Positions 6,247-64,000 of a stretch of 64,000 bases of DNA are shown here, piece by piece; the first letter of the stretch is position 1, and each line of letters opens with the position of its first letter. The notes beneath the pieces are model-generated. The model saw nothing but the letters and a program-made list of their open reading frames with translations, was not told where the DNA came from and made no database searches. Origin of the DNA: Pristiophorus japonicus (Eukaryota); assembly GCF_044704955.1 (NCBI RefSeq), contig NC_091984.1, forward strand, positions 145,886,001-145,950,000, given 5' to 3'. Both the position numbers and the translations under genes were made by a program.

Positions 6247-6249
6247 TGT

Positions 6250-7570
6250 ATCTATTCCTCGGTCGTGTCTTCGGGTTTGCGCTTTTAATTTATCCAAACA
6301 TGGGTACCCTGGGAATTGATCAATACATTTTCCTTTTCCTATTACTGTCTCTTGACCTAATGATTTTTTCCATTCTTTAATTCCACCTTTAAGATCTTTA
6401 ACTTCCGCTTCCAGCTTTTCAAGTTCAAGCTTTTTCTGTCGCAGCTGTGCACAAACAGCTTGCAATTGATCCTTTGTACTGGTCAGTTCTCGATCATGTT
6501 GGGAACGCATTATAATTTCATTCCGGTTTCGGATCTGGCCCATAACCGCTAGGGACCATCTAGTTCGCTCTTTAGTTTTCATACGGGTCGTTTTTCCCCA
6601 GACCCTTTTAATCTCGTCCAAGGACCATTGTCCTTTGGAGGTTCCATACTTTTGTTAGATCTTAATACAGGTTTTAGATAAGTTGAATTGTTGCTCTATG
6701 TATTCTTTCAACTGTTCGAGAATTATATCGAGCGAAACTTTAGGTGGTGCCTGCCCACCTTTAACAGTTGTAGGCAATTCTTTGCTCTTATCTCCTGCTG
6801 CCATTTCTTTACTGAGTTCTTTACTGGGGTCTCAAGTCGTAGGCTTGCTAGCCGATCAATAGGTCGGTGATTAATTAACTAACACACCGCCGAAGTTTGG
6901 ACGTTTATGGGACCTCGAGCCGACTACCAACCCGAGGGTTCGCAAACCAGAGGCTTTCGGAATCGCGTAGAAGGAGAGGCGAATTTAGACTTTTGACCGA
7001 GGACTTTTTAAAAAGAGGAGTCCTTACCTCAATTTGTAGGTCCGATGTCCAAAATTCAGTTTCTTTCCTCAGCGATCCTGTTCGCAGCACCAAAATTGTT
7101 AGATCTCTTAATTTCCAATGAAATACGAACTCCGATGGTAGTTTTAACTTTTTAATCTTGGCAGAGAGTACAAGCTGCTGGCTGATTGCCAGTTTCTTTG
7201 TCTTACTGAAACCACATGGTCAAAATGGCTGTATTTATACCTGGGTCAATTTACAGAAAAGAACTCACCTTCTTTGACCTTATTGGTCAAATTGAAAGTC
7301 TTTTAACGTTTTAATTGGCTCGCTACCCAAGGTCCGAAAATGTCAAGTTGATTGATGACTTAATGCAATGTGGCCTGTGTTTTTTCACAGCCTGTCTAAA
7401 TGCTACCTGTTTGAATTCTCTATCAGTGTTGTACCCCTCAGTGTATATTGGTCTATGTGTGTTATTAAAGGTATGGCTTTTACTTCTTTTTAAACACAAT
7501 AAAACCATACCTGCTTCCTACCTTGAAACCGATTGTCTGTCCAAGTCTGTCACAGTCCCTTCATAATTCC
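6250..7570 (-). mobile_element. LTR retroelement fragment: LTR (7097-7554), tRNA-Ser-like PBS, leader, coiled-coil gag N-terminus
   Basis: Minus strand: TGTGACAG...CTAACA, ATTT, TGGTGCTGCGAACAGGA (7092-7076); ORF 6621-6250 predicted coiled-coil. Confidence 0.65.
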
Positions 7571-10616: not shown

Positions 10617-11460
10617 CTTGACCCATCCACCTCCACGGAGGTGTGTGGGGGACCTGACCCATCCACCTCCATGGCACGAACCTGGTATTGCAGTACTTCC
10701 AGGAATGGTGCAGTGGCTCTAGGCCTTTTGGCTAAGAGCATTGGCGCAGAGTGATCCTTGAATGGGCCCAAGGTGAGCTCTGGTGTTTGTGATTTGACAA
10801 AGAATTGGAACGATTGGCTACGAATTTCAAAAAAAAAAAAACACGGGAAGGAGGCCCAAAGTGGTTCTCCCTGGATCAGGAAGGTGGTTCTCCTATGCTT
10901 TTTGGAAATAGGAGGTGGGTGGGGGGGCCTGACCCATCCACCTCCATGGCACGAACCTGGTATTGCAGTACTTCCAGGAATGGTGCAGTGGCTCTAGGCC
11001 TTTTGGCTAAGAGCATTGGTGCAGAGTGATCCTTGATGTGTGCAAGGTGACCTCTGGCGTTTGTGATTTGACAAAGAATTGGAAAGATTGGCAACGAAAA
11101 AAAAACACGGGAAGAAGGCGTGGCCTTTTGGCTAAGATCATGCGTAACTGACCTGACAGGGGAGTAACCATGACCCCAAAGTGGTTCTCCCTGGATCAGG
11201 AAGGTGGTTCTCCTATGCTTTTTGGAAACAGGAGGTGGGTGGGGTGGATTGACCCATCCACCTCCACGGAGGTGTGTGGGGGGCCTGACCCATCCACCTC
11301 CATAGCACGAACCTGGTATTGCAGTACTTCTAGGAACGGTGGCTCTCGGCCTTTTGGCTAAGAGCATTGGCGCAGAGTGACCCTTGATGTGTACAAGGTG
11401 ACCTCTGGCGTTTGTGATTTGACAAAGAATTGGAAAGATTGGCTACGAATTAAAAAAAAA
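10617..11460 (+). mobile_element. Three tandem U1/U2 snRNA-derived SINE-like units (10617-10840, 10856-11104, 11120-11460)
   Basis: Each has U2 3' sequence (ACCTGGTATTGCAGTACTTC), U2 5' sequence (GGCCTTTTGGCTAAGA), a shared ~90-nt tail and an A-run. Units 2 and 3 also carry U1-like sequence. ACACGGGAAGGAGGC-like repeats separate them. Confidence 0.85.
11145..11213 (+). ncRNA. U1 snRNA 5' fragment (nt ~1-51) plus duplicated nt ~28-47, inside a SINE-like unit
   Basis: taactgacctgacaggggagtaaccatgaccccaaagtggttctccctgg vs U1 ATACTTACCTGGCAGGGGAGATACCATGATCACGAAGGTGGTTTTCCCAGG (about 39/51 by eye); then gatcaggaaggtggttctcc (18/20). Confidence 0.8.
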
Positions 11461-11467
11461 TACGGGA

Positions 11468-12808
11468 AGGAGGCGAGTGAACCGGTGCGCTCAGTGCTAT
11501 CTTGGGAGGCACTGTTCACCCTCCCGTCGCAGAGAAGACGCACTATCACAGTGCAAATGTACAACCCCCACATCCCCGTCATTGATGTGCTGACTTTCCT
11601 CAACAGGTTTTTCGATGGGGCAGGAAACAGCAGTGACTTGAAAGACGGGCACGGAATATGGACCAGCAAGCGCCAGATCCAGGTCACCATGAAGGTGGAC
11701 GCCAGCGGAACCATCCTGCACCCCCCCTCCAGCTTTTCCATCGGAGGAAGCCGGGGCTACATGGTGTACGCTGGCCAACCCAACGTGTGCCGCACCTGCG
11801 GGAAGGCAGGCCATGTGGCGGCAAGCTGCAAGACTGTCATCTGCCGAAACTGCAAGAACGAGGGCCACCAGACAAAAGACTGTAAGGAGACCAAGTGCTG
11901 CAACCTCTATGGTCTGGCTTGGCACCTTTACAAAAACTGCCCCAAACGCAATTTCAGCTATGCGCAGGCAGCAAAGAACATTGCACCAGAGGAGGAGGAA
12001 GCTGACGAACACAACGCTCCAGAGGAGAGCCACACCCTCCCCCCGACCAATGCCGCCGTGGACTCGGGACAAGACGGCGAGGAAGAGAACACTGCTACCG
12101 CGAGCTGCGAGCCACCAGCCTCGCCCCCAGAGCACCGAGTCCAGAAACGAGCAGACATCAGACGATGAAGCGGAATGGCAGACAGTAAGGAAAAAGGCCC
12201 GCGGGCGCAAGGCGAAGAGGTGACCACCAAGCTCGGCAGAAACCAGCGACGGCAGCTTGTCTGATGAGGAAAAGTGCCACCGCCTAAAGAAGAGGCAATG
12301 CGCCAACCCACGGCCACAGGAAACCGGGAGCAGTGAAGCGACAAACACAGCCCTGCCCCAGAAACCTGCGAGCAATGAAGGGCCCAGCGCACACGAGCTC
12401 CGGGACACCGAGAGCGAAGGAGTAACCAACGCAGACCAGACCTGGGATAACGGGAGCAGCGAAGTGCCCAGCACACCCCACCTCCGGAATACCGGGAGCG
12501 ACGCAGCGATCGACACACACCAGCTCGACACCGCCGCGACTGAGGAAAAGAGGGAACCACCAACACCAGGCGAGGACTATGCAGAGAACATTGAGGACTT
12601 AATCACAAAACTGCAGCAGTCCCCTGGTCAAAACATCGCCACAGCAGAGGACGACGATGACCACGCCACCCCAGGTGTAGTAAATGTTGATATTGATGTT
12701 GATAGTAATAACTTACACATGCTGGAAATCGCCATTGTGAATTATGGGGGAATTGAAATCGATTTACCTGAAATTGAAAACGATGCATCTGAACTGCAAT
12801 GTCTGTAA
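11468..12808 (+). pseudogene. Tx1/Keno ORF1 (ZCCHC3-like zinc-knuckle protein), disrupted
   Basis: MYNPHIP...GIWTSKRQ...HPPSSFSIGGSRGYMVYAGQPNVCRTCGKAGHVAASC...CRNCKNEGHQTKDC; acidic tail broken into several frames. Confidence 0.85.
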
Positions 12809-12828
12809 ATGTAAAAAATAGCTTTAAA

Positions 12829-15800
12829 ATGGATTTAAAAATTGCTAATATTAACGTGCGTAGCGTAAAATCGACTACGCGATGTGTTTCCACCTTGGGG
12901 TACCTCGCCAAGGTCAAAGCAGACCTGCTGTTTTTGCAGGAGTGCGGTCTGCCGCACTTCAGCAGTTACCGGCAGTGGTCACGATGGTGGACCCATGGAC
13001 CATCCATATGGTCAGAGGGCAACGACAGCCGGGCTTCCGGCTTGGGCATTCTGCTGCAGGGAGGCCACTTCACCATCACCGAAGTTAAGGAGGTGGTGGG
13101 CGGCCGCCTCCTTGTAGCAGACGTAATGTACAAAAACTCCCCTCTCAGGTTCATTAATGTTTACGCCCCAGTTCCCAAGGACGAGAGGCTGGCCCTCTTC
13201 CAGCAGCTCCCACTGCTACTGGCAACGTCCAGGCCAGTCATTCTGGGTGGTGACTTCAACTGCATCATCGATGCGGCTGGACGATCCAGCAGAGCCGACA
13301 GCAAACTGGACGCCACGTCCAAACTCCTGATGGATGCCGGTAAAAGATGCCAAGCTGTGCGACGTCTTCAGCAACCCTGCAGACGGAGCACCGCGCAGAT
13401 ACACCTGGTCGAGACCAGACGGGTCCGTCCGTTCCAGAATAGACTTCCTGTTTGTGTCCCACACGCTCAAGGTCAGATCCACCGACGTCACACCGGTGTT
13501 CTTCTCTGACCACTGCCTCCTACTGGCCGACTGTCACCCACAGGAAAACCAGAAATTTGGCAGAAGGATATGGAAGCTGAACGTGAAACTGTTGACTCCG
13601 GAAAACGTTGAGGAACTCAAGAGGGATTACAAAGGTTGGAGAACCGTAAAACCCCTCTGCGATTCCCCGATGCACTGGTGGGAAACAATCAAGACGCACA
13701 TCAAGAGGTTCTTCATCCTCAAAGGTGTTCAGGAGACAAGAGGGAGACAGAGGGAATTGTCCCAACTCCAGACAAATATGCAAAACCTGCTCCTGCTGCA
13801 GTCGATGGGGGTCGATGTCGCGGAGGAACTCGAAGAGGTGAAGGGCCAGCAAGCCTCGCTCTTTGCCTCGGAGTCCTCCAAGATCATCTTCCGCTCCAGA
13901 GTCCGCTCCGTTGAGCAGGATGAGACGTGCTCGCGCTTCTTCTTCCAAAAGGTACACAGGGGGAGCTCTGTGATCACCAGCCTAAGGGAAGGAGACGGTT
14001 CTGTGACGTCTTCGCAGCCTGACATGCAGAGGATCAGCAAATCCTTCTACGACGTCAAACCCACAGACCGCGTGGCCTCCCAGTCTTTCCTGTCGTCTAT
14101 TTCGGAGGTCTTAGACGACAGCGAACGGGAGAGTCTGGACCACCCGCTAACTCTGGATGAGCTGACAAAGGCCGTCCGGTCCTTCGAAACGAATAAAACT
14201 CCCGGAAGCGATGGCTTACCGGTCGAGTTGTACTCGGCTCTGTGGGACTGGATAGGCCCGGACCTGCTGGAAGTGTACGGAGGTATGCTTCTGGCCGGCA
14301 GCATGTCAGAATCGATGAGAAAGGCATCATCACCCTCATCTACAAGCAGAAGGGGGAGAGGGAGGAAATCAAAAACTGGCCGCCCATTTCGCTGCTCAAT
14401 GTGGACTACAAGATCCTGTCAAAGGTCATCGCCAACAGGGTCAAGTCTGCCCTTGAGCTGGTGATTCACCAGGACCAGACCTGCGCTGTCCCCGGCAGGA
14501 AGATCTCTGATAGCCTCGCGCTACTCAGAGATACGATCGCCTACGTGCGGGACAGGAGGGTGGACACCTGCTTAATCAGCTTAGACCAGGAGAAAGCCTT
14601 TGACAGGATATCGCACACGTACCTGATGGACGTGCTCTCCAAAATGGGGTTTGGGGAGGGTATCTGCAATTGGGTCAAACTGCTCTACACAGACATCAGT
14701 AGTGCAGTTCTAATCAATGGGTGGGAAACTCAAAGCTTTCCAATCAGATCTGGAGTCAGGCAAGGCTGTCCTCTCTCGTCTGTCTTGTTTGTGTGTTGTA
14801 TCCAGCCCTTTGCCGAGTCCATTAGGAAGGATGTGGGCATTAGAGGGGTGACGATCCCAGGCAGCGGAGGCGCCCAGGTCAAAACCTCGCTGTACATGGA
14901 CGACGTCGCCGTCTTTTGCTCGGATCCGCAGTCGGTCCACAGATTGCTCGCAATCTGCGACCAGTTTGAACTGGCCTCGGGAGCAAAGGTCAATCGCACC
15001 AAGAGCGAGGCTATGCTCTTTGGTCACTGGACCGACCGAGCCTCCATTCCCTTCACCGTCAAGCCAGATTTCCTGAAGGTGCTGGGAATATGGTTCGGAG
15101 CGAACGGGGCGTGCGCCAAAAACTGGGACAAGCGCATTGCCAAGGTCAGACAGAAACTGGCATTTTGGGAGCAGCGCTCCCTTTCCATCACAGGCAAGAA
15201 TCTGGTCATCAGGAGTGAGGTGCTCTCGGTGTTGCTGTACGTGGCACAGGTCTGGCCCATCTCTCGCTCCTGTGCCGTGGCAGTCACCCGGGCCGTCTTC
15301 CACTTTGTCTGGAGGTCCAAAATGGACCGTGTCCGCAGAGACACGATGTACAAATCTCTGGACAGTAGAGGAAAGGACGTTCCGAACGTGGCCCTCATCC
15401 TAATGGCCACCTTTGTGTGCGGCTGCATCAAGCTATGCACAGCCCCCCAGTACGCAAACACCAAGTGTCACTACGTGCTGAGGTTCTACCTGTCCCCATT
15501 GTTGAGAAGGATGGGTCTGGCCACGCTGCCGCGAAACGCCCCCACCAGTTGGACCATGCCTGTCCACCTGTCCTTCGTGGAAAAGTTTTTCAAAAGAAAC
15601 CCCTTTGACCACAAGGCCATCAAACAGTGGTCAGCACGTAAGGTCCTGGACGCCCTCCGAAAGAAGGAGATGGTGGACCCTGTCGGGTGGTTCCCTGAGC
15701 GGACTGTCGAACTTGTTTGGCAGAACGTCTCATCGCCAAAGCTCACACACAAGCACCAAGACGTAGCTTGGTTGGCGGTGAGGGGGGCCCTACCCGTCAG

Positions 15801-16224
15801 AGTATTCATGCACAGCCGACGCCTCAGCAGCACGGCACGGTGCCCCCGGGCCGGCTGTGGGGCGGACGAGACTGTCACCTATCTCCTTCAGGATTGCGCC
15901 TTTGCAACGCAGGTCTGGAAAGAGATGCAGTGGTTGCTGTCGAGGTTCATCCCAAGCAGCTCCGTAACACAGGACTCTGTGCTCTATGGGCTGTTCCCAG
16001 GGACTCACACCGAGACAGACATCACCTGCTGCTGGAGGGCTATCAACTCGGTCAAAGACGCTCTTTTGTCTTGCCGAAACTTGCTGGTTTTCCAGAACAA
16101 GGAGATGACCATGTCCGCATGTTGCAGACTGGCGCAATCCAAGATCCAGGAATACGTGCTGAGGGACGCACTGAAAATTGGTGCAGTCGCCGCAAAGGCA
16201 CGGTGGGGAAGGGCCACAGTTTAA
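12829..16224 (+). pseudogene. Tx1/Keno ORF2 (APE endonuclease, RT, C-terminal zinc-binding motif), two frameshifts
   Basis: NINVRS, LQEC, GGDFN, SRID, SDH; LDQEKAFD, GVRQGCPLS, YMDD; CPRAGCGADETVTYLLQDC. Frameshifts near 13338 and 14320. Confidence 0.92.
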
Positions 16225-27270: not shown

Positions 27271-29925
27271 GCACAGCAAATGTAACGCCCCTATTTAAAA
27301 AATGAGGCAGACAGAAAGCAGAAATCTTTAGACCAGTTAGCCTAACATCTGTGGTTGGGAAAATGCTGGAGTCCATTATTAAGGAAGCAGTAGCAGGACA
27401 TTTGGAAAAGCATAGTTCAATCAAGCAGAGTCAGCATGGTTTTATGAAAGGGAAATCACGTTTGACAAAATTGCTGGAATTCTTTAAAGATGTAACGAGC
27501 AGGGTGGATAAAGGGGAACCAGTGGATGTGGTGTATTTGGATTTCCAGAATGCATTCAATAAGGTGCCACATAAAAGGCACAAGATAAAAGTTCCTGGGG
27601 TTGGGGGTAATATATTAGCATGGATAGAGGATTGGCTTACGAACAAAAAAGAGAGAGTCAGGATAAATGGTTCACTTTCCCGTTGGCAAATCCCTAATGG
27701 GATGCCGCAGGGATCGGTGCTGGGGCCTCAATTATTTACAAACTACATTAATGATTTTGATGAAGGGACCAAGTGTAATGTAGCCAAATTTGCTGATGAT
27801 ACAAAGAAGGACATTGAGCTATCCAACAAAGACGATTACACATTACACCAAACAAATGAAAAAGTAAGGGAGGAAATTGAGGAAATGATGGCCCCTCCAA
27901 AATGGGATTTGGGATTCAATATTCAGATTCTCTCCTGGGTTCTAATCGTGTGTCAATCACTAGCCATTGTATAGTTGGTTCTTGTGGTGTAACTATTTAT
28001 CTTATCCTTTAAGTTAAAACAGAATACAAAGGAAGGGAATGTTGAAGGGTTGTTTAGATGAACCAAAGCCAAAGTGTTTGTATATAAAACTGAAGTCAGA
28101 TCAAGCCCGAACATTTTTGTTGTAAAATTGTTGGTTTGTCAGGAAAAAGTACTGTTTTTGATGTAAAACAGGAATGTAATCTGGAGTTTTTGACTGAGAC
28201 TGCAATACGCCCAAATAGAGCTCATGGAAAAAGAACTCCACAAGTAATGACTCTAGTTTTATATTTGCAAAACATTAAAGGAGGGAGTGTAAGGTTACTA
28301 ATCTTCAGAAAAGCACAGAAAGAGACCATGAACTAAAGATTAATACAAGCTTTTGGAATTAAGCTGGACAATTAAGGGCATTCTTGGTCAGGGAACAAAA
28401 CTGACTCCATGCATAACAAGAATGGAGTTGTTACATGAGGCCCTGAACTTGATAGACCAGGGTGGGGAAAACTAGCTCACTGGAGACACCAAGTCTGTAA
28501 AAAGACCAGACAACAAAGGAACCACACTAGGTGCACATCTTTTGGGATGAAGTTTTAAGATGAGAAATCAACTTGAGCCTTGCAGATTCAGTGTGCAAAT
28601 GGGAAAACAGACGAGTCCATTATTGCAGTCAATCAACCAAGGGGACCACAAAACAATGTATCGATGCAAACACTATCAGAAACCGCAGTGGCGGGAGATC
28701 AGTCATAACCTGGATATAAATATGCGAGCTAGAAGCAGCTCTGCAGAATACGGAAGGAGGACAGGAACAGACGGAAGAAGTAGTACACAGAAGAAATAGA
28801 AGGACACGTGTACAGATGGACACAGGTCGAAAGAACAAACAGATGAACAAACGGAAGGACATGTAGTACGGAACATACATGGAGGGAACAACACTGCAGA
28901 GAATGGCCAAAAGAAGAACCAACCGGTCACAGAACCAACGACCACAAACCTACTAAAGATAAAGCCAGGAAGGGCGATTGTATGTCTTCAGTTGATTTTT
29001 AAGAATCAGAGTAGATTGAAAAATAATCACCCTATAAGACAAAGATGGGTGGGAAAGCAAATTGTGAGGAGGACACAAATAGTCTGCAAAGGGATATAGA
29101 CAGACCAAGTGAATGGGTACAAATTTGGCAGATGGAGTATAATGTGGGAAAATGTGAGGTTTTCCACTTTTGCAGAACAAAGAGGAAAGCAAATAAATTT
29201 TCAAATGGAGAAAAATTGCAAAGGAGACCTTGTGCATAAAACACAAAAAGTTAGTATGTGGTTACAACAATAATCAGGAAGGCAAATTAAATGTTGGCCT
29301 TAATTGCAAGGGGGATAAGTATAAAAGCAGAGAAATCCTGCTACATCTATACAGGGTATTGGTGAGGCCACACCTGGAGTACTGTGTACAGTTTTCATCT
29401 CCATACTTAAGAAAGGATATACTTGCATTGGCAGCAGTTCAGAGAATGTTCACTAGATTGATTCTGGAGATGAGGGGGTTGACTTACGAGGATAGGTTGA
29501 GTAGGTTAGGCTTATAATATTGGAGTTCAGAAGAACGAGAGGTGATTTTATTGAAACATATCAGATAATGAGGGGGCGACAAGGTGGATGCAGCGAGGAT
29601 ATTTACACTCAGAGGAGAAAATAGTACTTGGGGTCATAGTCTCAGAATAAGTGGCCGTCCATTTAAAACTGAGTTGAGGAGGAACTTCTTCTCTGAGGCT
29701 TGTAAATCTGTGGAAATCTCTGCCCCAGAGAGCTGTGTAGGCTGAGTCATTGATTATATTTAAGGTGGAGATAGACAGATTTTTGAGCGATAAGAGAATA
29801 AAGGGTTATGGGGAGCGGGCAGGGAAGTGGAGCTGTGTCCAAGATCAGATCAGCCATGATCTTATTAAATGGCGGAGCAGGCTGAGGGGCCAGGTGGCCG
29901 ACTCCTGCTCCTATTTCTTATGTTA
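27271..29925 (+). mobile_element. CR1 LINE split by ERV remnant
   Basis: SQHGFMKG...KFADDTK, resumed at 29039 through to the 3' tail. Confidence 0.85.
27808..29038 (+). mobile_element. ERV remnant (env membrane anchor, PPT, partial LTR) interrupting a CR1
   Basis: MAPPKWDLGFNIQILSWVLIVCQSLAIV resembles the env tail at ~54900; AAAGGAAGGGAA then TG at 28040; CR1 ORF2 resumes at 29039. Confidence 0.6.
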
Positions 29926-48550: not shown

Positions 48551-49149
48551 AGGCTTTCGCAGACTGACTGTGGCCTGTGTACAAAAGCACCTGTAGTGGG
48601 GACATAGACAGGGATAATTTAAGCCCGGACGAGTTAGCAAGCTGACTCCGAAGCCCAGTAGCTAAGTTTATCCAGAATAAGAACTAAGGCTGAGGCCTGG
48701 TTTGACCCAAGCGATCCCCGAGCCACAGAACAGGGAGTACTTAGACAACTGACCCTAGCTTACAGAAACGGCAGAGGGACAGAAGAGCACCCACAAAAAG
48801 GGAAGGGTTCACGAAATCTGACCTAGCCAAGATAAGAGGGAATGACGCCATGAGCAGATTAACCCATCCGATACAAAATGTATCTGCTTTGGGTGCGGAA
48901 AGAGTGGGCACTGGAGAAAAGATTGTAGAAATCTTTGGAAAGATAGTGCTGGAAAGAATTCTCCAGCCCCGGTCAAAAAGGCTGAGACCAAGAAGCCAGT
49001 CCCTCCCCATTCGTTTGATACCATTTTAACTGCACTCCGAGCCATGTTAGATGGCCCAGGGAAGGTAGCCACCGCCACCAGTACCGAAATCCCATCTGCC
49101 CCCTCCCAACCAAAACTGTTACTAGGACAGGCGCAGCCTGTCCACTTGT

Positions 49150-51667
49150 GTGCCCTCGAGTATGATGCGTGGGGGAGACCGACCATCCAGATGGAGGTGG
49201 AAAAGGTGAACACCTGCTGGACACCGGTGCCTCAAGCACCCTTGTCTATGCAGCTAACCCCGCCGCCTCACCTCTGTCCCCGACAGCTTGGTGAGTTTCA
49301 CAGGCACTGAACAGACTGGCTCATTCTCCATTCCGCTCTCCATTCATTTAGGTAAACTCCACACTAAGTGGACTTGTGTCCTGATGAAGTGGGAGCAGGA
49401 AGGGAAAGGGATCCTGGGGGCTGACTTCATCCTAGGCCATGGGATCATGGTACAATTAAGAAACCACTGTCTTTGGGGGTCAGTCTGTATGGGACAGGAG
49501 AGTGAGGTGATGGGAATCCCGGGAAAACAGGGAAAAGGTACGGTGTGCACCATGAAACCAAAGGAGGGTTACGACCTTGAATCACTGGTCAGTAATACCC
49601 CTGTAGAATACCAAGAATATGTGAGGATAAACCTTGCAGCTTTTGCCACTCACAAACATGACTTTGGTGAATAAACGGGGTCGAGGTTAGCATAGATGGG
49701 GACCCCATGATCCGACCACAGAAACAGTACAATTTCCCCAGGGAGGCGGAGGCAGACATGGAAACAGCCTTGGGTTCTTTGGTTAAACAGGGGGTATTGA
49801 GACCAATAGCTACCCATGTGAACTCTCCATTGTGGCCGGTTAAGAAACCGGACAACTCCTGGAGAGCCACGGTGGACTATCGAGTACTCAATCCTAACAT
49901 CCCCGCCTGTGCACCCACTGTTGCTGCTGTTGCCGACCTCATTGGAAGTATCCCAGCCTCCACGACCACCTTCATGGTGCTGGATACTTCCAACGGGTTC
50001 TGGTCCATACCTTTAAGGAGGGAAGATCAGTACATGTTTGCTTTTACCTTTAAAGGACAACAATACACTTGGAACTGTCTCCCTCAGGGCTTCCACAATA
50101 CCCCAGTATTTTCCATCAGTGTATGTCCAACTGTTTAAAGAGTTTCAGCAGACCCCAGCAGTTGGTGCAGTATGTGGATGACCTGCTCCTGTTCACTGAT
50201 GAGGGGGAGGAGCATGGCCCACTGCTGGCTGAACTGCTGGAGCTGCTGAAAGAAGAAGGATTTAAAGTAAACCCCAAGAAGGCACAGATTGGCTTGAAGG
50301 AAGTAAAATTTATGAGACTGGCGGTGTGTGCTGGGGAATGAGCCACAGACAAAGCTAGAAGGGAAGCAGTGCAGAAGTTACCCGCCCCCAGCACAGTAAC
50401 AGGAGTAAGACCTTTTCTCGGGCTAACCGGGTACTGCAGAGACTTCATTGAGGATTATGCAGCCACAGCAGCCCCTCTGCTCCAACTCCTACACAAGGAG
50501 TGGAGTGGGAATGGGACAAAAGTTGCGAGGCAGCATTTATCCAACTCAAGAAAGATCTGCAGACCGCGCCAGCTCTAGGGGCCATAGACGGGGGTAAAGA
50601 GTTTTTCCTAGAGGTAGCAGCCAGTGGGGACAGCCTGAGCGCAGTACTGCTCCAAGAGCGGCACGGCCGGCTGAGGACAGTGGTCTACTCCTCCAGGATA
50701 CTCACGGACGTGGAGAAGGGATACTCCAACTGTGAGCGGCATCTCCGAGCCACTCACTGGGCTGTGAAAAGATCACTGATCTTCACAGAGGGGGTCCCCT
50801 ATCACACTCCTTACCCATCATACGCCCACCCAAATGCTCCTGGACGGGAGAATCAAGGACAGGAGTGTGAGCAGTGCCCGCATTGCTCACTGGACCCGGC
50901 TCCTCTCTCAAATGGACCTAAGGGTAAAGGGTCTTTGCGAGCCAAGACACACAGCCAACATGATTTATCCAGGGACAGCCTTCCCATGCCGAACAGCTAC
51001 TGCCCTGGGAACAGCCAGGACCCTGGTCAGAGAAGTGTTCTCTCGATGGGGACTACCACAATACGTGGAGTCCGGCCAAGGGAGTCACTTTACCGGGCAG
51101 GTGATGCAGGAGACCGTTAAGGTACTCGGCGTCAAAGGGAAATGGCATGTCGCCCACAACCCGCAGTTATCCGGGCCTGTGGAGCATTTAAACCGCACTA
51201 TCAAAGAAAGGCTGCACAAAGAGACAGGGGACTCACCCAAAGGGTGGGTAGAGGTCTTACCACTGGTCCTCATGGGGATCCGGGCCAGCCAGTCAAAGAG
51301 CACGGAGTACTCCCCATACGAGCTCATGACCGGCAGAGCCATGCTAACCCCCACCCACGTGTTAGCCCCGGTACTCACGGAAGGTCAGCTTAGGGAAGCA
51401 AAGCGGGACAGCTTTGTCAGGAATCTGTTTGAACACCTTAAACAGATTCATTGGCAGGCTGCTAACAACATGGGAAAACAGCATCGGAGCAACCGGCTGC
51501 TGCTAGAACCCCACAACCACCACGAATGGGAGATAGGGGACCAGGTTATGGTGAGGAACTACGCTAGAGTAGGTCTCTTTGAGGCTCTGTACATGGGACC
51601 GTACCATATTGTCGACAAGGCAAGCCCCATGATCTATGCCATAAAAATGTCCCGCCGTACAAAGTGA
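49150..51667 (+). pseudogene. ERV pol (PR-RT-RH-IN), fragmented
   Basis: ILGADF; NSPLWPVKKPDNSWRATVDYR; GFWSIPL; QQYTWNCLPQGFHN; QYVDDLL; YSNCERHL; GSHFTG...VEHLNRTIK; SPYELMTGR. Confidence 0.9.
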
Positions 51668-52765
51668 TTCCACATAAACCAGTGCAAACTTTTCAACCCA
51701 GGGGCAGCAGCTAAACTTAAGGGACAGCGAAAAACAGTAAACTGAACTGAAGACAGAGACCCCCAGCCAGCAGCCCTCGACTGGAAATCCCACAGGGGAC
51801 GTGGCAGACCCACAGACAGCACCTAGAGGGGTGGTGGACTGTGTTACTGGCGGAGCTTTCCCCACAATCATTTCGGACTCGAACGCACCCCCAGTAGCCA
51901 GAGCCTTAAGAAGGACTCCCTGCACACCACAGCCAAAGACACCGTGGTCACCAGCGCCCCACTTTGAATGGTTCAGCCCCGGGAAAGGGACCAGCCGCGA
52001 AAGGGCACCTAAGGTCAGAGACCAGCCCGCGACCAGGGACACCCAGCCGGTAGCCTCGGGCAACGAAGGACCCCCAGAAGAGATAGCGGTGGACCAACCA
52101 CAAAGTGGGAGTCCCAATCCCGTAGCCGTCGACCAGGTAGAACCCCCAGGGGGTGAAACAAACCGAGCAGCCACCCCCAAGGAGCGGTGTGCTGCAGCAC
52201 CGGAGGGAACGTTCCTCCAATGGTGTGGGACTCAAACCCACCTCCGGTCAGGACACTCCAGGTCCTGCGGCAAAGGCCGACTTACTACCGGAGGAAAAAG
52301 AAGAAAGAAAGAAGGCAGGAATTAACCTGGCCACCCGGAGACGGGTGGCAGTTGTACATATATAGTACAATATGAATTTAAGAATGTCTAGTGAGTAATT
52401 TAGAGTAGTGTAAGATTGTCTGTGTAATGATAGTAATATATGTATTAGTTACTGGGGTAAGGAAAAGAATCGACCTGTGCAGCTATTAAAAGAGGCACAG
52501 GCCGGGTAATACCTGGGAGTAAGAAGAATCTACCAGTATAGCTATTAAAGGAAGCACCGTTAAGATAAGATGGCTGTGAGACAAAAGTTAAAGGCAGACA
52601 CCAGTTCCATAAGGAACTGAATAAGACAGCCAGTCAATTAAAGGCTGTACTGTGTGTCTGAGAAGAAATGAGCCCAAATTGGAACTCGGTCATCTTTGTC
52701 AAGCCGGAGAGCTTTCTCAGGGCTAGACAATCTGTTTTCTGTGTCCCGATAGGAAGGAGAACAGT

Positions 52766-55132
52766 ATGGAAAGGGTCCTGTTCCTGCTCGCCCTGATAAG
52801 GATGAGCAGTGGCGACCGAGAAGACCTGGAAGAATCCCACATTTATGGGTGCTCAGGAGAGAGAACACTGATCGTAACTGCAGGGGGAGGCACACTAGAC
52901 ACGGAAGAACTCGCCTTTTACGCCCACGAGGGAAGGTGGCCAGGGTGGCTGGGATCTAACTCTACCCGCTACTCCAGCCAGAAAGGTTTTACCTATGGGG
53001 AGGCCTCAGTTCCATGCCCCCGGATACGGATCATCGCTGCCCGAGTCAGTGTTACAGAGGGAAAACATGTATGTTTGACTTGCAAAGGAAACATTCCAAT
53101 GGGAAGATGGTGGTGACACATAAAACTCAGCAAGGACACATGGGACCAGGAATCGGACTGGGAAAAACTCGGTAATGATACCTATCGCACCATCACAGGG
53201 ACATGGGGAGGAGTAAAGGTGTGTTGGGACAAATGGTGGGAATCTGAACAAGGAATTTATGTTTGCATGTGGGGATCAGAGAGTATTTGTCCCGCAGGCA
53301 TATCAATCGCTTTCGCCAGGCAATGGCAAGATGAAGGGGAAGGGATGGGGTGGGATTCTAGCCTACACGGGTGCGCAGTCCCACACTCCACACTCCAAAT
53401 TAACACCACCGAACTAAGAGCACACATTAAGAAATCCCTGCGCACAACCCCGCCAATACGCACAATAATAGAAAAACGTCCTACCACAAACAAGGGACCT
53501 GGAAATGGATTAGTATTGGTACCGACCGAAAAGGTGTTATACCAGGGGGTACATTATGCAGTAGCTTCAGTAATATTAAACCTTACCGAGGTACACCTAC
53601 CTGCCTGGTGTCCGATGGAAACAGCTGCTATACCAGGCCCTACTTTGAGATATGTTCAAGAAATGTTATGAGTTAGACTTTGGAAATGTAGACAAAGCAG
53701 ACCTACACCCTAAACGCTAGGGACACCATGGGCTTGGGGAGACCTAGAAGGGGAATCATAAATTACGTTTTCATAGCCTACAATACAGGATCCTCTGTAA
53801 TAAATAGCCTAGGTGACATAGAACTGCAAACGCAGATAAACGGTTTAAAGAACCAACTGAGGAAAATCCTGAAACAAGAGAACACTGTAGTAGGTTCAGA
53901 ACTACTCGAGGACCAGGCTATGACTGTCCATTTAAAAGAAATAGTGGCTGAGCTGGAAAAACATGCACAGACAGTGAATGCACTCGTACGGGAGGATAGA
54001 AACGATTCGGACCAGGCTGCACAGAACGAGGTGTGCGTACTATATGGGGCATGGTTGTTGGGCGAGGGCTGCAACAACCTGGAGGATTTAAAACAAGGTG
54101 TAGTCCTCTCCTGGATCAGTAACAAGCACCTCGCAGCTCTCCACCCGTACATCAATTCACTAAGCCCATGCCAGCTCCGCCGAGCCTCTGAAGCCGACAC
54201 TGTCCCAGTAGACTGTGGGAAATCTAACCACACCATTATGGGGATAGTACTAAGGATGCCGGTCATGGGTGGAACAGCCCGACCCGCACCGGTATACTGG
54301 GTGGAGAACATTGGAGTCATTCAGGGAGGTGCACATATTCATTTTGCAGCAGTCCCACCCTATGTCATAAAGTGGGAGCACGCTGTAACGGGTACTGACC
54401 TCTCCGGGTGCCGGAGCCGGGGTGCACACGTAATACTGTGTCCCCAGTACTTAAGTGCCCATTCAAAGTCGCAGTGTGGGTTTAAAGCTGCTGGTGCACA
54501 GCCTATTAATTGCACCATGGAGGTAATTGCACAAGAGCATGTCCCTCCACAGGTAGCATACATAGAGGGTGGGACATATTGTGTCACCACCAGTGCGCCC
54601 CACTACCAACATGGACACTTCTGGTGTTCGGTTAGTGACAGCAGTTTTTGCTTCAAACCTGAGGCATCAGTTCAAGTGACCCAGGAATGGATTGTCCCCA
54701 TTCCTGAATCCTCCACTGTCCACCTTACTGTGAAGGAAAACATTACAAACCTGCAGGATTATGTTGCACATTTTGGCTATGCAATTCCCCCTCAACCCGA
54801 ACATCTTACCGCTCTGCTAAAAGCTGTAATTATCTCACAAATACACTTCTACACTCGAGAACAGAAAACAATTGAGGGAGAAAGATTCTCGAGCTCACAT
54901 TTCCACCTTGGTGGGACCTTTTCAGAAATATAGACGTCCCAGTCTGGATCCGAATCGCTTCCCACACTTTAGTTATCTGTCAACTTATTCTTTACTTACG
55001 GTGTCTCACTTGCCGAGTGAAATGCAGAGGCCGTTAGGTCAGGCACCAAAGGGTGTTATACGCTCCTTGGCCGAACATGGGAATCGCGCAGGGAGGGGTG
55101 GCACCATACTACCATGTTTAATTTGTGTTTGA
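52766..55132 (+). pseudogene. Env-like class I fusion glycoprotein, fragmented
   Basis: Signal peptide MERVLFLLALIRMSSG; furin-like RPRR|GIINYVFIAYNTGSSVINSL; heptad region; Cys-rich region; shifted-frame PPWWDLFRNIDVPVWIRIASHTLVICQLILY membrane anchor. Confidence 0.8.
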
Positions 55133-55469
55133 TTTTACCTGTTGTAAAACGCAAATATTGAGTGTTGTAAGAGCATTACTTAAAAGTCTGTTTAACTATG
55201 TACCTTTTATTTTTTTTTACTGTACCTAAAGTTGTGTTTGACTGTATACTGTTATTTTACTGTGAAAACGGAGTAAAGGAGGGGCATCGGACCCCCTCTA
55301 TGCTGTAACCGAATTGTAATGATGGTATTCGCCTGTAAATTGCATCGCATTTCAAAGGGGGATGCACGTTAATGTTTAGCTGGTATAAATGCGGGAAAGT
55401 TGACTCTCGGAATCAGGAATTTTGTTTACCTTGCTTGACACACAAGTGTGTAGAGTGTCACAGGGGGAC

Positions 55470-56854
55470 TGAAAGGTCAAAATTCACAGGAACCTCCCCA
55501 GTGTTTGGGCACATTGGAAAGGAAATTTAATTTGGGACTATCTACTGGATAGTTTGATATCCTAAAGTGCTTATGGAAGAAACTATGAACTTTAATCGAA
55601 TTTTGGACTTTTACAAGACAAATTCAAGTCTGTGGGCAGACCGAAGGAACTAAAGGAGCTAACTTGATTATTGGAACTGTCTGGGTGTTGGGACTAAAGT
55701 AAATTGTCTGGAGAAATGGATATTCGAAAACCCTTCTCCACAACAGACATTAACATTACAACAATAATTCAGGGATGGCCAGCCATCAAACTGAACCGAG
55801 AAAAGCCATCTTCAGCATGAATAAGAACAAAGGGCCCACTACAGCTTGTATGCAAAAACCAAGTAGAAAAAGACATTGCGATTACCAAGCTAATATTTCC
55901 AGCAGGAAACAGATTTAGAAGAGCAACCCACCCAAGACATAGTCACTTTTAATGAGCCCGCCAACATATTACAAAGAAATGTCAAGCCCGCCAAATTTAA
56001 ACAAAGAATTCTGGACTAATTTGGCATGACGATTAGGACAGCTCAAACAATATAACTGGCCCCCTGTTTTAACAAAGTGTATGCCATACTACGCCTATGC
56101 CATCAAGAAGGGAGCGAAACCAACGCGACAGTTGTAAACTAACTTCTCCTGCCTCGAAGTCCTGAAGTCCAAAAAGGAAGGAAGAATATCACCACGTGGC
56201 AGCAACTGACCACAGCCAACGTGGTACCACCAAAACCACCGCGATCGACCAAACTCGAAACAAAACTCCAACAGAAAGAAACCGAAGAATCAAAAGTTTC
56301 CACTCTACAAGCTGTTCCTGAGCTACCAACGGGTAAACTATTACCTAAAGAACTGCAAAAACCTACTTATACCGAAAGAAAATGGTTACTTACCCCACAA
56401 ATCCAAAACGCACCTTACCGCATCAGCGGACTCAACCCAACTGAAGATCGCGCAGTAAGAAGTCTTCTCCAATGTTCGGGGTATGGCAAGCAGAACCTAC
56501 AGAATTCAACGAACCCCGAAATCGTGAACTACCGCTAACTGACCAGAAAGGATTGGTAAGCATTGTCCCTGCCCGCCCTGGAGTCTAACCTAGCTAGGAT
56601 TAGGTATTGGGAGGTGGGAGGTGTAATTTTTCTGTAACCCCCTTTGAATGTGTAATGTATTGTCCTTTATTAGAGTGATTATAAGTTTGACATTGTATTT
56701 TTTGTCTGTACTAAAATCAAAGTTCTTTTGCATCAAACCAGTTGTCCTTTGCACTTTACCACATTCCCCCAGTCTAGAACCCAAGGGAGTGGGAGCGATT
56801 CGAACCGCTCAAGTAGGTCAGAGGTGAACCTGACCCCCGGGACCATCCCTTACA
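55470..56854 (+). repeat. ERV 3' LTR (~1.4 kb)
   Basis: TGAAAGG follows the PPT; ends CCCTTACA. The terminal ~75 bp resemble 7581-7659. Confidence 0.7.
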
Positions 56855-58642: not shown

Positions 58643-61600
58643 TGTTATGTATGTAAACATTACCAATGTGTAAGACTTGCCACCAAGGGGCGCACCTGTG
58701 GGAAACTCAAAGGTCACCTGCACACACTGGGCAAGCAGGTATAAAAGGCAGTCTACCATGCTGCCTCCTCAGTCTGAGTTACAATAAATAAACCAAGGTC
58801 ACAACAGTTTGAGCTTAAGATATACAGTCTTGTGGAGCTATTCTAAACGTAACAATTGGCGATGAGTAACAGATCACAAACTTTCATGCAGTTATGGGTG
58901 CCATTGGTATTCTTGAGAGATTTGTTGAGGATGATGATTGGGAAACCTTCGTTGAGCGTGTTGACCAATACTTCGTGGCCAACGAGCTGGAAAAATCAGA
59001 AACCGCGATCAAGCACAGGGCGATTCTCCTCACCGTTTGAGGGTCCGCGATATATGGCCTCATCAAAAATCTGCTCGCACCGACGAAACCAATGGACAAG
59101 ACATATGAAGAGTTGGTTCAGGAACACCTCAAGCCGAAGGAGAGCATCTTGATGGCCAGGTATCGCTTTTATAAGCACCACTGCTCCGAGGGCCAGGATG
59201 AGCTATGTCGCCTACCTAAGATGCCTTGCATCTTTGGGGGAAGTGTTGCGGGACCTTTTCGTGCTTGGAATCGGCCACGAGGTCATTCTTCGCAAACTGA
59301 TGTCTGCCGAATCCCTAGGTCTGAGCAAGGCCAACACGATAGCCCAGGCTTTTATGTCCACGAACGATAACACTAAACAGATCTCATTGCAGCATCGGAA
59401 CTCACCGGCAAGTACTGTGCATAAAATAACGCCTTCAGCAGGCAGAACTGTACATAGCAGGGCCTACACGCCTGCAGACCTAGGATGACTCCGAGTCCGC
59501 CGTGGGGCGTGAATGCGAATCCATGAGCACCGTGTTGGCGCTGCGGGGGTAATCATCGAGCCCATCAATGTCGATTCAAACATTACGTGTGCAAGGGCTG
59601 TGGAACAATGGGGCACCTCCAGCGAATGTGCAGACGTGCTGCGACTCACCATGTGGCAGAATCGGCAGACGATTACCGATTCGGCGCAGATCACATTAAA
59701 CGAGTAAGAGAGGCAACTCAACCCGAGGCTGAAGAGGAAGTGTATGGGGTACACACCTTCACCACCAAAAGCCCTCCAATAATGTAAATACTCAAATTAA
59801 AATGCATTCCAGTTTCCATGGAATTGGACACGGGGGCGAGTCAGTCAATTATTAGCCATAAGGCTTTTCAGAAACTGTGGGTCAACAAGGCATAAAGGCC
59901 AAAACTAAGTCCGATCCATGCCAAGCTTCGCACGTACACCAAAGGGCTCATACCAGTCATTGGCAATTCGGCAGTGAAGGTATCGTATGATGGAGCTGTA
60001 AATGATTTACCACTATGGATTGTACCAAGCGATGGCCCAACGCTGTTTGGCTGAAGCTGGCTAGGAAAGATCCGATGGAACTGGGACGACATCAAAACAC
60101 TGTCTTCATGCGTACAAGTGCTAAACAAATTCCCGTCGTTATTCGAGCCAGGCATCGGCAACTTCACAGGCGCCAAAGTGCAAATCCATCTAGTCCCTGA
60201 TGCATGACCCGTTCATCACAAGGCCCAAATAGTTCCATACATGATGCGAGAAAAAGTCGAGATCGAGCTGGAGAGACTTCAACGAGAGGAGATCATAGCA
60301 TCAGTCGAGTTCAATCTTTCCAGTGTTGAAGAGCGATGGGACGGTCAGAATCTGTGGGGACCACAAGGTAACGATCAACCTCGTTACAGGACCAATACCC
60401 ACTACCCAAAGCGGATGACCTGTTTGCAATGCTAGCAGGGGGGAAGTCGTTCACCAAGCTGGATCTAACCTCTGCGTACATGACACAGGAGCTGGCTGGA
60501 TCTTCAAAAAAATTGACGTGCATCAACACGCACAGAGGACTGTTCATATACCACAAATGCTCCTTTGGGATTCGTTCGGCGGCGGCCAACATCCAGAGGA
60601 ACATGGAGAGTCTGCTGAAATTGGTTCTTCGCACCGTGGTGTTCCAAGACGACATCTTGATCACTGGTCGCAACACCACCGAACACTTGCACAACCTGGA
60701 AGAGGTTCTCATGTGACTGGACAGAGTGGGACTCAGGTTGTGTTTTCCTGGTGCCAGAGGTCGAATTTCTGGGGAGAAAGATTGCGGCAGACGGCATCAG
60801 ACCCACGGACTTCAAGACGGAGGCCATCAAGAATGCACCCAGAGTACAGAATGTAACGAAGCTGCGTTCGTTCCTGGGACTCCTCAACTATCTTGCTAAC
60901 TTTCTACTGGGGTTAAACACTTTGCTGGAACCATTGCATTTATTGCTACGCAAGAGTGACAACTGGGTTTTGGGGTAAAGCTCAAGAGACAGCCTTTAAC
61001 AAGGCCAGAAACCTGCAATGTTTTAACAAGTTACTTGTATTGTATAACCCATGTAAACGTTTAGTACTAGCTTATGATGTATCCTCGTACGATTGTGTGT
61101 TACAGCAAGCCAATGGGTCAGGCAAACGGCAACCGGTTGCATATGTTTCCAGAAGCTTATCTAAGGCTGAAAGAGCCTACATTATAGTTGATAAAGAAGC
61201 ATTAGCATGCGTATACGGGGTTAAGAAAAAGCACCTTTTGGGCTCCGGTTCGAGCTCGAAACTGACCACAAAATGTTCATTTTGTTGTTCTCAGAAAGCA
61301 ATGATATTAACACCAATGCTTCGTCCCGCATCCAAAGATGGGCACTAAAGTTATCTGTATACGATTATGTAATCCGCCACAGACCAGGCACGGAGAACTG
61401 TGCAGATGCCCTCAGTTGGCAATCATTGCCCACCACTGGGGTGGAAGTGGTGCAACCCGCAGACTTGCTCCTTGTAATGGATGCTTTTGAGAACGAGGGG
61501 TCACCCGTCACGGCTCGCCAGATCAGGACCTGCACTAGCCAGGATCCGGTGCTATCACGAGTAAAAAGCTGTGTCCTCAATGCGAGCTGGTCGGCGATCC

Positions 61601-62991
61601 CAGGGGAAATGCAAGATGAAATTAAACCGTTCCACCAAAGCTTGGATGAAGTGTCCATTCATTCAGACTGCCTCCTGTGGGGGAATCGTGTAATTTTGCC
61701 AAAAAACAGCAAGGAAATGTTTATACGCGACCTTCACAGTACCCACCCAGGCATAGTCATGATGAAGGCTATCACCAGGTCGCACGTTTGGTGGCCCGGC
61801 ATTGTCTCGGAATTGGAGTCATGCATACACCAATACAACACTTGCTCACAGTTGAGCAATGCACCAAGGGAGGCCCCACTGAGTCTGTTGTCATGGCCTT
61901 ACAAACCGTGGTCAAGGGTCCATGTAGATTTCACTGGCCTCTTTCTAGGAAAGATGTTCCTAGTAACAGTGGACGCTTATTCTAAATGGATTGAATGTAC
62001 AATAATGTCATCATGTACATCCACTGCCACCATTGAAAGCCTCCAGGCTATGTTCGCCACCCATGTTTTGCCCGACGTCCTTATTAGTGACAATGGACCA
62101 TGCTTCACCAGCTCAGAATTCAATGAGTTTGTGACCCGTAATAGCATCAAGCATGTCAGGCCTGCAATGTTTAAGCCCGCATCCAATGGTCAAGCAGAAC
62201 GTGCAGTCCAAACCATTAAGGTGAGCTTGAAACGCGTGACGGACGGTTCCCTGCAGACCCGGCTATCTCGGATTCTGCTCAGCTACCGGACGCTTACTGG
62301 TGTTCCCCCGGCAAAATTATTAATGAAGAGCGCACTCAAAATCAGGCTCTCCTTAGTCCACCCGGATCTCAGTGATCATGTAGAAACCCACAGTCACTGG
62401 CATAACATGTACCATGATCGCGCGGCTGTATCATGCGACATTGAAGTTAATGACCCTGTGTTTGTTCTTAATTATGGTCATAGTCCTAAATGGGTTACTG
62501 GCACTGTTTCAGCCAAGGAGGGGAATAGAGTGTTTGTTGTCAAACTTTTGAATGGATAAACGTGCAGAAAGCACTTGGATCAGATCAAATTGCGGTTCAC
62601 TGACAACCAAGAACAGTTTGAAGAGAACATTACCATCATTGATCCACACACACCCAACCAGCATCAACCTCGCGGTCAACCACGCGATTAACCCACCATG
62701 CCCGACAGTCCGATCAGACCAGCCACACTGCAGTGCAGCAATGATCTGACCGACTCACCCCTGCCCGGACTTCAACTCAGGCGATCAACCCGGGAACGCA
62801 GAGCCCCGGATTGCCTCAACTTGTAAATAACTTGTACATAAAACTTTGGGGAGGAATGATGTTATGTATGTAAACATTACCAATGTGTACCCACCAGGGG
62901 GTGCACCTGTGGGAGACCCAAGGGTCACCTGCACACACCGGGTAAGCAGGTAGAAAAGGCAGTCTACCATGCTGCTTCCTCATTCTAGAGT
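58643..62991 (+). mobile_element. Gypsy/Ty3 LTR retrotransposon, degenerate
   Basis: 5' LTR 58643-58854, PBS TGGCGATGAG, gag-PR-RT (KLDL...FQDDILI)-RH-IN (ORF 61273-62559), PPT, 3' LTR from 62860 cut by (TG)n. Confidence 0.92.
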
Positions 62992-62994
62992 GAG

Positions 62995-63000
62995 GGTATG

Positions 63001-63032
<32 letters not shown>

Positions 63033-63077
63033 AGGGTGTGTCTGTGCGTGGGTGTGTGTGTGTGCGTGTGTGTGTGT
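62995..63077. repeat. (TG)n microsatellite
   Basis: Direct reading. Confidence 0.95.
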
Positions 63078-63679
63078 ACATTGGAAGATTTCACTTCGAG
63101 TCACACATCAATTATAGACAACGGTCTCTGAGGAAGTCCATGTAGCCCCTGTGGGGTTCCCCTGGATCATAGGTGAAGGTGATAGCCTTCATCATGACTA
63201 TGCCTGGGTGGGTACTGTGAAGGTCGCGTATAAACATTTCCTTGCTGTTTTTTGGCAAAATTACACGATTCCCCCACAGGAGGCAGTCTGAATGAATGGA
63301 CATTTCATCCAAGCTTTGGTGGAACGGTTTAATTTCATCTTGCATTTCCCCTGGGATCGCCGACCGGCTCGCATTGAGGACACAGCTTTTTACAATGAGA
63401 ACCAGAAGAAGGCTCTGTCGAGCCTCTCCAAGAACATAACCCAGTTGAGAGCAGAGACTATCCAACTGTTTGTAGACAAAATCCACGCAAGGATTCAACC
63501 GCTCTACAATGCCGTACGATAAAGTGCGGGCTGAAGCGCTCGGTGTGCTGGGGAACTTGGCCAAGGGGGGAATCAGAGGGTCCAGGTGCAGTATTACCTG
63601 GATGGAAACAGTGAGCAGGTCACCACTTCCTGTCATTCAACACTGCGCTCGGTATTCCCAAGTGTTGGATCTGCCGAGG

Positions 63680-64000
63680 CTTCCTCAGTAACTGGGAATG
63701 ATCCAGGGGAACCCAACAGGGGCTACATGGACTTCCTCAGTAACTGAGAATGATCCAGGGGAACCCCACAGGGGCTACATGGAGTTCCTCAGTAACTGGG
63801 AATGATCCAGGGGAACCCCACAGGGGCTACATGGACTTCCTCAGTAACTGGGAATGATCCAGGGGAACCCAACAGGGGCTACATGGACTTCCTCAGTAAC
63901 TGAGAATGATCCAGGGGAACCCCACAGGGGCTACATGGACTTCCTCAGTAACTGAGAATGATCCAGGGGAACCCCACAGGGGCTACATGGACTTCCTCAG
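63680..64000 (+). repeat. 52-bp minisatellite, at least 6 copies
   Basis: CTTCCTCAGTAACTG(G/A)GAATGATCCAGGGGAACCC(A/C)ACAGGGGCTACATGGA; runs off the window end. Confidence 0.95.

Follow-up and report, generated by a model that had tools for sequence, protein, structure and literature searches.

RESULTS

Structure of the provirus

In a 64,000-nucleotide stretch of the genome of the sawshark Pristiophorus japonicus (RefSeq assembly GCF_044704955.1, contig NC_091984.1, positions 145,886,001 to 145,950,000, forward strand; here called the window and numbered from its first letter), we analysed an endogenous retrovirus (ERV) at 48551–56854 on the plus strand. A preliminary description of the window had taken this element for a lokiretrovirus (loki) with an envelope (Env) resembling the paramyxo- and pneumovirus fusion protein (F), and had proposed a structural search against F, a reverse transcriptase (RT) phylogeny and a search for intact copies. 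We found a 5'-truncated and frameshifted provirus in which every gene is broken by stops or frameshifts. Its limits had been drawn correctly: the left boundary, 48551, is the junction with a Tx1-like long interspersed nuclear element (LINE), and at the right boundary, 56854, the 3' long terminal repeat (LTR) terminates in CA. Missing are the 5' LTR, the start of gag and approximately 1.05 kb of pol (RNase H and the integrase start).

Reading along the plus strand, the remnant opens with a broken 3' part of gag (48551–49121), comprising the end of the capsid and a CCHC zinc knuckle (approximately 48882–48929), recognized by Pfam zf-CCHC (E = 0.002) and by tblastn against the gag frames of the fuller copies described below. 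A broken protease and linker follow (49122–49715), their place being that after gag and an in-frame stop in all seven fuller copies checked. The RT (49716–50505; Pfam RVT_1 and trees), probably of SnRV-like, class III type (SnRV, snakehead retrovirus), carries a frameshift near 50100 and one stop, and is succeeded by a frameshifted tether domain, i.e. a degenerate RNase H (50494–50980; Pfam RT_RNaseH_2, E = 1e-20). At 50977–50980, an AGCC microhomology marks the site of the deletion of approximately 1.05 kb, which the preliminary description overlooked. It took the second RNase H, the integrase zinc finger and the start of the integrase core, a segment present in the aligned fuller copies, where Pfam finds RNase_H (E = 3e-17) and Integrase_H2C2 (E = 7e-17). 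What is left of pol (50978–52325) encodes the remaining integrase core, a GPY C-terminal domain and a proline-rich tail of approximately 200 residues (Pfam rve and Integrase_p58_C), in a frame that is continuous in other copies.

The N-terminal part of env (52766–53495) starts with an ATG at 52766 and a hydrophobic leader, the signal peptide, whose frame stops at 53114–53116, and likely includes an immunoglobulin (Ig)-like domain at approximately 53027–53317. An F2-like segment (53495–53751), with frameshifts near 53650 and 53700, ends in the furin-type site RPRR (53740–53751). The F1-like subunit (53752–55118) comprises a putative fusion peptide, long heptad helices, cysteine-rich beta domains, a second heptad, a membrane anchor (approximately 54948–55010) and a short tail. 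A single frame of 413 residues (53692–54933) holds RPRR and 393 post-cleavage residues with 11 cysteines, while the anchor lies in a different frame, beyond a frameshift near 54876. Thus, the signal peptide, cleavage site, cysteine-rich segment and anchor seen by the preliminary description are all present, but frameshifts keep them from forming one open reading frame; the segment that it called fusion-peptide-like is in place, though only weakly hydrophobic (best 15-residue Kyte–Doolittle mean 0.57, measured in another copy). A purine-rich tract upstream of the LTR (55453–55469) is the likely polypurine tract (PPT), and the 3' LTR (55470–56854, TG...CA, approximately 1.39 kb) matches both LTRs of the fuller copies.

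Fuller copies, family and age

Better preserved copies were indeed found. A DNA search of the same genome with env gave 4032 first-look candidates, and the 40 that were scored were the window itself and 39 others at 92–98% identity. Both flanks were retrieved for ten of these 39. LTR pairs were present in seven of the ten, with Kimura two-parameter distances of 0.045–0.074, which correspond to 10–17 million years at a mammalian rate or to 100–170 million years if sharks evolve ten times more slowly, as PMC4422223 assumes. The fuller copies have the layout LTR, primer-binding site (PBS), gag (coiled coil, capsid, CCHC), in-frame stop, pol (protease, RT, tether, RNase H, integrase), env, PPT, LTR. 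The in-frame stop ends gag in all seven copies in which the junction was located, in the context TGA-CTA-G in five. The host tRNA to which the PBS is complementary is tRNA-Arg(TCG), for which there were six pattern matches, three of them retrieved and two called Arg(TCG) by ARAGORN, and a target duplication of 4 bp is clear in two of the four copies checked. The RNase H segment of approximately 1.05 kb in these copies gives the family the dual RNase H of retroviruses (tether and acquired RNase H), the latter being deleted in the window copy. At one locus, the 3' flank is the one found beside the window copy (97.6% identity), and both the 5' LTR and RNase H are retained; the window copy was therefore damaged after a duplication. 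Within the integrase of this duplicated sister locus lies a CR1-like LINE fragment of approximately 1 kb (L011:6775-7817).

The genome also holds a sister subfamily (RT 83%, Env 63% identical) with a different PBS, long open env frames in two of three loci and, at all three, LTR pairs that are 97–99.8% alike, so the lineage has been copying recently. Linkage of pol and env holds for the window copy, for the fuller copies and for all three of these young loci.

Placement by reverse transcriptase and integrase

The RT of the window reads QQYTWNCLPQG (frame 49671–50138) and QYVDDLL (frame 50054–50341), retrovirus-like motifs as had been noted, whereas the RT of the Gypsy element in the same window reads ..SFG..VFQDD. 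Set against the RT alignment printed in the supplement of PMC7947760, it lacks the loki signatures VPLSRWPM and CPFGY.NSPAEFNIFL; it shares PTVA, LDISNGFWSI, LPQGFH.SP.IFHQ and QYVDD with SnRV. SnRV is also the nearest named reference (43% identity), with 33–35% to loki-type and 30–35% to foamy RTs; the nearest database RTs are 'NYNRIN-like' proteins of frogs and coelacanth (46–48%). References were found by motif (17 foamy-type genomes, SnRV, gamma-type, class II, WDSV-type (walleye dermal sarcoma virus) and three loki-type fish contigs). The loki-type loci (L071–L073), whose Env matches PF00523, and SnRV were identified by RT match to sequences printed in PMC7947760, and the labels foamy, gamma, class II and WDSV were inferred from motifs and genome layout.

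In a careful RT tree, for which 50 of 94 rows were kept after thinning of near-duplicates, the loki RTs (100/100) are sister to a clade of all other retroviruses (100/98), and the query lies inside the latter. Foamy RTs form their own clade (100/100) with the query outside it. The approximately unbiased (AU) test rejects a grouping of the query with loki (p = 0.008) and with WDSV-like RTs (p = 1e-4), which places the element outside Epsilonretrovirus; nor does it belong to Ty3/Gypsy, its RT lying outside the Gypsy clade and its RNase H being dual. Quick trees joined the query to SnRV at SH-aLRT values of 96 (50 of 71 rows, without loki or class II) and 89 (54 rows). With its RT inside the canonical retroviruses and an LTR-PBS-gag-pol-env-PPT-LTR layout, the element is a canonical member of Retroviridae. 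It is not a lokiretrovirus, since the position of the RT defines that group and here it lies elsewhere; on this point the preliminary description was wrong. The placement of the RT with SnRV (class III/Huo) is the best available and weakly supported.

When the same genome was queried with a loki RT, 146 of 197,894 candidates were scored and none exceeded 40% identity, while loki-type RTs are 66–93% alike among themselves. Five of the top six matches, on inspection, were this ERV family and one was another LPQG-type RT. A loki RT motif pattern gave no match in this genome and none in the viral contigs searched. Among the 146 scored matches, which include loci of the young sister subfamily, 29 lie in open frames of at least 1420 residues.

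The other parts of Pol are less informative. RNase H is 24–33% identical to all references by BLAST, and its dual form is common to all retroviruses and so is not diagnostic of loki. In the integrase tree (38 of 76 rows, without CGIN1) the placement of the query is unsettled; the integrases of its RT neighbours group with loki at 96/90.

Predicted fold of the envelope

An AlphaFold monomer model was built from a 46-row alignment headed by the natural 651-residue frame of another copy (mean pLDDT 67.9). In Foldseek against the PDB, all 34 among the matches listed are paramyxo- or pneumovirus F, the best being human parainfluenza virus 3 F (E = 1.3e-10). The VIA structure comparison gave Z = 13.0 over 331 residues against a paramyxovirus F (root-mean-square deviation 14.9) and Z = 12.0 over 293 residues against postfusion Nipah F (root-mean-square deviation 5.8). 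Identity to F is 12–13%. Model residues 106–514 align with F residues 25–431, so that the predicted monomer contains an F-like three-domain core formed from both subunits, as in class Ib. The top ESM Atlas matches were Baculo_F (0.91) and Fusion_gly (0.90), and those in BFVD include lispivirus glycoproteins, baculovirus F and the Envs of walleye epidermal hyperplasia virus 1 (WEHV1) and WDSV (E = 2e-9 and 4e-6). Among further BFVD matches to the model are a glycoprotein of a fish filovirus (Wenling thamnaconus, E = 5e-12) and proteins of abalone and ranid herpesviruses. The post-cleavage part measures 459 residues and is unlike the short transmembrane subunit, with immunosuppressive domain and CX6CC motif, of gamma-type Envs. 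Structural modelling thus confirms a predicted paramyxovirus-F-like (class Ib) fold, and the earlier view that the layout fits F better than a gamma-type transmembrane subunit is borne out.

The N-terminal region of approximately 250 residues likely holds an Ig domain, which we offer as a lead rather than as proof. Weak Pfam Ig matches occur in three homologues, including Ig_3 in P0107 (E = 0.003) and P0108 (E = 0.009), and a low-confidence model of this region finds in Foldseek almost exclusively antibody V domains (E approximately 0.01).

Relatives of the envelope

A protein search with Env returned eight proteins from 5159 candidates, four of them named: Pristiophorus japonicus (59–88%) and Rhinoraja longicauda (60%). 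With a sawshark and a skate as the sole named close relatives, Env by itself makes a cartilaginous fish host very likely. A profile search of 1.84 billion proteins gave 45 matches, and nine of ten looked-up homologues were named (sawshark, Mustelus, Chiloscyllium, two Heterodontus, Pelodytes, Bombina, Mantella and Xenopus); UniRef names the Chiloscyllium protein 'Ig-like domain-containing protein'. Env pieces also occur within the host gene models P0048, P0050 and P0068 (Niban-like, cadherin and F-box); these are probably annotation fusions with ERV fragments and possibly exonised. This family was not among the results of a PF00523 search of the sawshark genome, for which the first look was stricter; its two sub-threshold matches were a different ERV and a sequence without Env or Pol similarity.

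We compared three family profiles with the reference Envs: one of 46 rows, one of 32 rows from which 14 frog and distant rows had been dropped, and one of 14 rows, sharks only. Against 205 viral open reading frames, the 46-row profile scored loki Env first (65 and 61 bits, E = 5e-20), followed by WDSV (37.5), foamy (at most 19) and SnRV (17); gamma-type Envs did not exceed 9 bits, all from the C-terminal heptad and anchor, and no reversed sequence scored above 0.2. With the 32-row profile, loki scored 32 and 29 bits, WDSV 20 and SnRV down to 2.4. Profile–profile (HH) probabilities, in per cent for the 46-row and 32-row profiles, were 97.9 and 94.7 for loki, 96.6 and 94.1 for WDSV, 94.2 and 91.4 for SnRV (over 351 columns), 63 and 82 for foamy and 2.5 and 1.3 for nine gamma-type Envs, while no reference, entered as a shallow profile, detects another (at most 2.7). 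The best PDB sequence-profile match of the family is 8ozh (E = 0.002), an envelope glycoprotein of 988 residues which we take to be foamy Env; a foamy locus gets an equal score. An Env tree (26 rows, profile columns) does not resolve the deep nodes; its branches are long and its foamy rows gappy. These profiles support a detectable relationship of the shark and frog Env family to loki Env. An F-like env does not diagnose loki, since this family is matched by foamy, SnRV and WDSV Env as well.

This genome contains a second divergent canonical ERV with dual RNase H (L033:304-3500 and L034:7300-8990, minus strand), whose env, interrupted by a Gypsy element, matches both PF00523 directly (E = 1.7e-6) and the Env of the main family, and whose RT falls outside loki.

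Neighbourhood in the window

Two Tx1/L1-like LINEs, each with ORF1 and an endonuclease-RT ORF2, lie on the plus strand at 11362–16224 and 43038–48550; the latter, whose ORF2 spans 45151–48550, is truncated 3' at the start of the ERV. At 58643–62986 (+) lies a Gypsy element that has LTR-like direct repeats and a decayed pol, and at 4863–5663 (−) a second integrase fragment of Gypsy kind. At 27777–28052 (+) we found a small remnant of a more distant env of F-like kind (second heptad and anchor, 31–46% identity), and at 6031–6654 (−) a frame of 207 residues with a coiled-coil stretch that by eye resembles the N-terminus of another ERV Gag. The right end of the window has a 52-bp tandem array (63628–64000) and, within 61561–63393, inverted arms of 216 nt at 99% identity.

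DISCUSSION

Based on the RT placement, the layout of the fuller copies and the modelled fold, the element is very probably a dead copy of a multi-copy canonical ERV, likely SnRV-related (class III/Huo), with an Env predicted to be paramyxovirus-F-like (class Ib) and a likely Ig-like domain at its N-terminus. In the intact virus, Pol would be made by readthrough of the stop codon, and furin would cut Env in two, giving an N-terminal subunit (Ig-like module with a strand and a helix of F2-like type) and a fusion subunit that is F1-like. The Ig-like module might then bind the receptor, and the F1-like subunit, judging from its fold, would refold into a six-helix bundle, as paramyxovirus F and foamy Env do, and cause fusion. 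After a duplication that included its flank, the window copy would have lost its 5' end and approximately 1.05 kb of pol and gathered frameshifts.

Several observations weigh against this reading. The group of query, RT neighbours and SnRV appears in the best tree at only 46/78, and the RT trees were built without ERV-L/S, fish foamy-like, Odin, lentivirus and deltavirus rows. The integrase is nearer loki (43%) than SnRV (36%) by BLAST, and Env, too, scores higher against loki than against SnRV. Neither the Env frame of the window nor the 651-residue frame has a Pfam or PDB match by sequence alone, and with the shark-only profile the HH probability is 1–6% for every reference, none of them significant. 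The model of the Ig region has a pLDDT of 36.8 and no Foldseek match at E of 0.001 or below.

Could the element nevertheless be a genuine lokiretrovirus, and so the first from a cartilaginous fish? Its F-like Env has loki Env as best reference match, its RNase H is dual, its integrase is nearer loki by BLAST and its UGA-CUA gag-pol junction is that of two loki-type loci; yet the RT lies outside the loki clade with the AU test against it, the loki motifs are absent from it and from the genome searched, no RT among the matches scored there approaches the mutual likeness of loki-type RTs, the PBS differs from those of the loki-type loci and Gag has a CCHC knuckle. We consider this explanation largely refuted already and barely credible. 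A fish foamy-like element (spuma, clade Tu) would also explain the F-like Env, and speaking for it are the match to 8ozh and the AU test, which does not reject a grouping of the query with foamy (p = 0.067). Its RT, however, is distant from foamy RTs and stays outside their fully supported clade, and it differs in having a Gag CCHC knuckle, a gag in frame with pol and a short N-terminal signal peptide on Env. Foamy viruses are not known to have a Gag CCHC knuckle, a gag ending in frame with pol or such a signal peptide, and we regard this assignment as very unlikely.

A different question is where the env came from. A class III retrovirus may have captured its env, and perhaps its integrase, from a loki-like virus, which concerns the origin only and is compatible with the classification preferred here. 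Loki Env ranks first with both the 46-row and 32-row profiles, the integrases of the RT neighbours group with loki, and env swaps are common in anamniote ERVs, including a gamma-type Env on an SnRV-related Pol (10.1101/2021.11.23.469661). The match of SnRV, WDSV and foamy Env to the same family would, however, require several independent captures, the second divergent canonical ERV of this genome also has an F-like env, and score rank depends on evolutionary rate while the Env tree is unresolved at depth; we hold capture to be possible but somewhat doubtful. Conversely, the F-like (class Ib) Env could be the ancestral retroviral Env, kept in loki, foamy viruses, SnRV-related viruses and walleye epsilonretroviruses, with gamma- and beta-type Envs as later replacements, a proposal on which the odds are close to even, with doubt slightly prevailing.

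Wang and Han favour independent origins of loki and canonical retroviruses, whose Envs, in their words, 'did not share detectable similarities' (PMC9040795). The Env of a canonical family now links loki, SnRV, WDSV and foamy Env by profile, which contradicts and so removes that premise. If the ancestral reading is true, the shark and frog Env family would be a sequence bridge that makes the homology visible, and separate acquisitions of env by loki and by canonical retroviruses would not have to be assumed. Where the retroviral envelope came from becomes testable by structure-guided trees, and a fold is offered for the unclassified Envs of WDSV and SnRV. Fernandez et al. placed orthoretroviral Env in class Ia (PMC11468914); our results suggest that more retroviruses than supposed are likely to have an F-like envelope. 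The preliminary description held that the original list of loki hosts did not stress chondrichthyans; none of six chondrichthyan genomes was positive in PMC7947760 (Fig. S1). In the accessible literature, subscription papers aside, we found no report of loki in chondrichthyans or of an F-like fold for SnRV-related or WDSV Env, although the appendix of PMC12583693 may list SnRV or WDSV. SnRV-related ERVs are already in print from a cartilaginous fish, the elephant shark (CmiERV lineage I, PMC4422223), and a headline of loki in sharks is wrong. The finding is of value as a bridge between the Envs of loki, of foamy viruses, of SnRV and of the walleye retroviruses; as for the window copy, it is a dead fossil.

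Comparison with known systems

With SnRV, clade Huo and class III ERVs (PMC4422223, PMC6001957) the family shares a coiled-coil Gag with CCHC and an in-frame gag-stop-pol arrangement. SnRV has the nearest named RT and a homologous Env core, and its Env by eye also starts with an Ig-like motif. It differs in the length of Env (approximately 790 residues here and 1130 in SnRV), in the junction (UGA-CUA here, UAG-GGC in SnRV) and in the PBS; we identified no accessory open reading frames here, and the integrase here is nearer loki. Lokiretroviruses (PMC7947760) are alike in an F-like Env with an RXXR site, dual RNase H, coiled-coil Gag, the UGA-CUA junction and an integrase that is similar by BLAST. 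In contrast, the long insert between protease and RT of loki-type loci is absent here, CCHC is present, the PBS is different, Env has approximately 250 extra N-terminal residues (likely Ig) and the RT lies outside the loki clade.

The Envs of WDSV and WEHV, described only as 'distinct' and non-gamma in the part of PMC9967133 available, resemble the family in BFVD structural matches and in a profile match at an HH probability of 97%, whereas a grouping of the RT with WDSV-like viruses is rejected. Foamy Env and paramyxo- and pneumovirus F (PMC11468914) share with it the predicted three-domain core, in which a strand and a helix of F2-like type precede the cleavage site and approximately 400 residues make up the F1-like part. 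The putative receptor module, however, is N-terminal here, as in coronavirus spike, and inserted in foamy Env.

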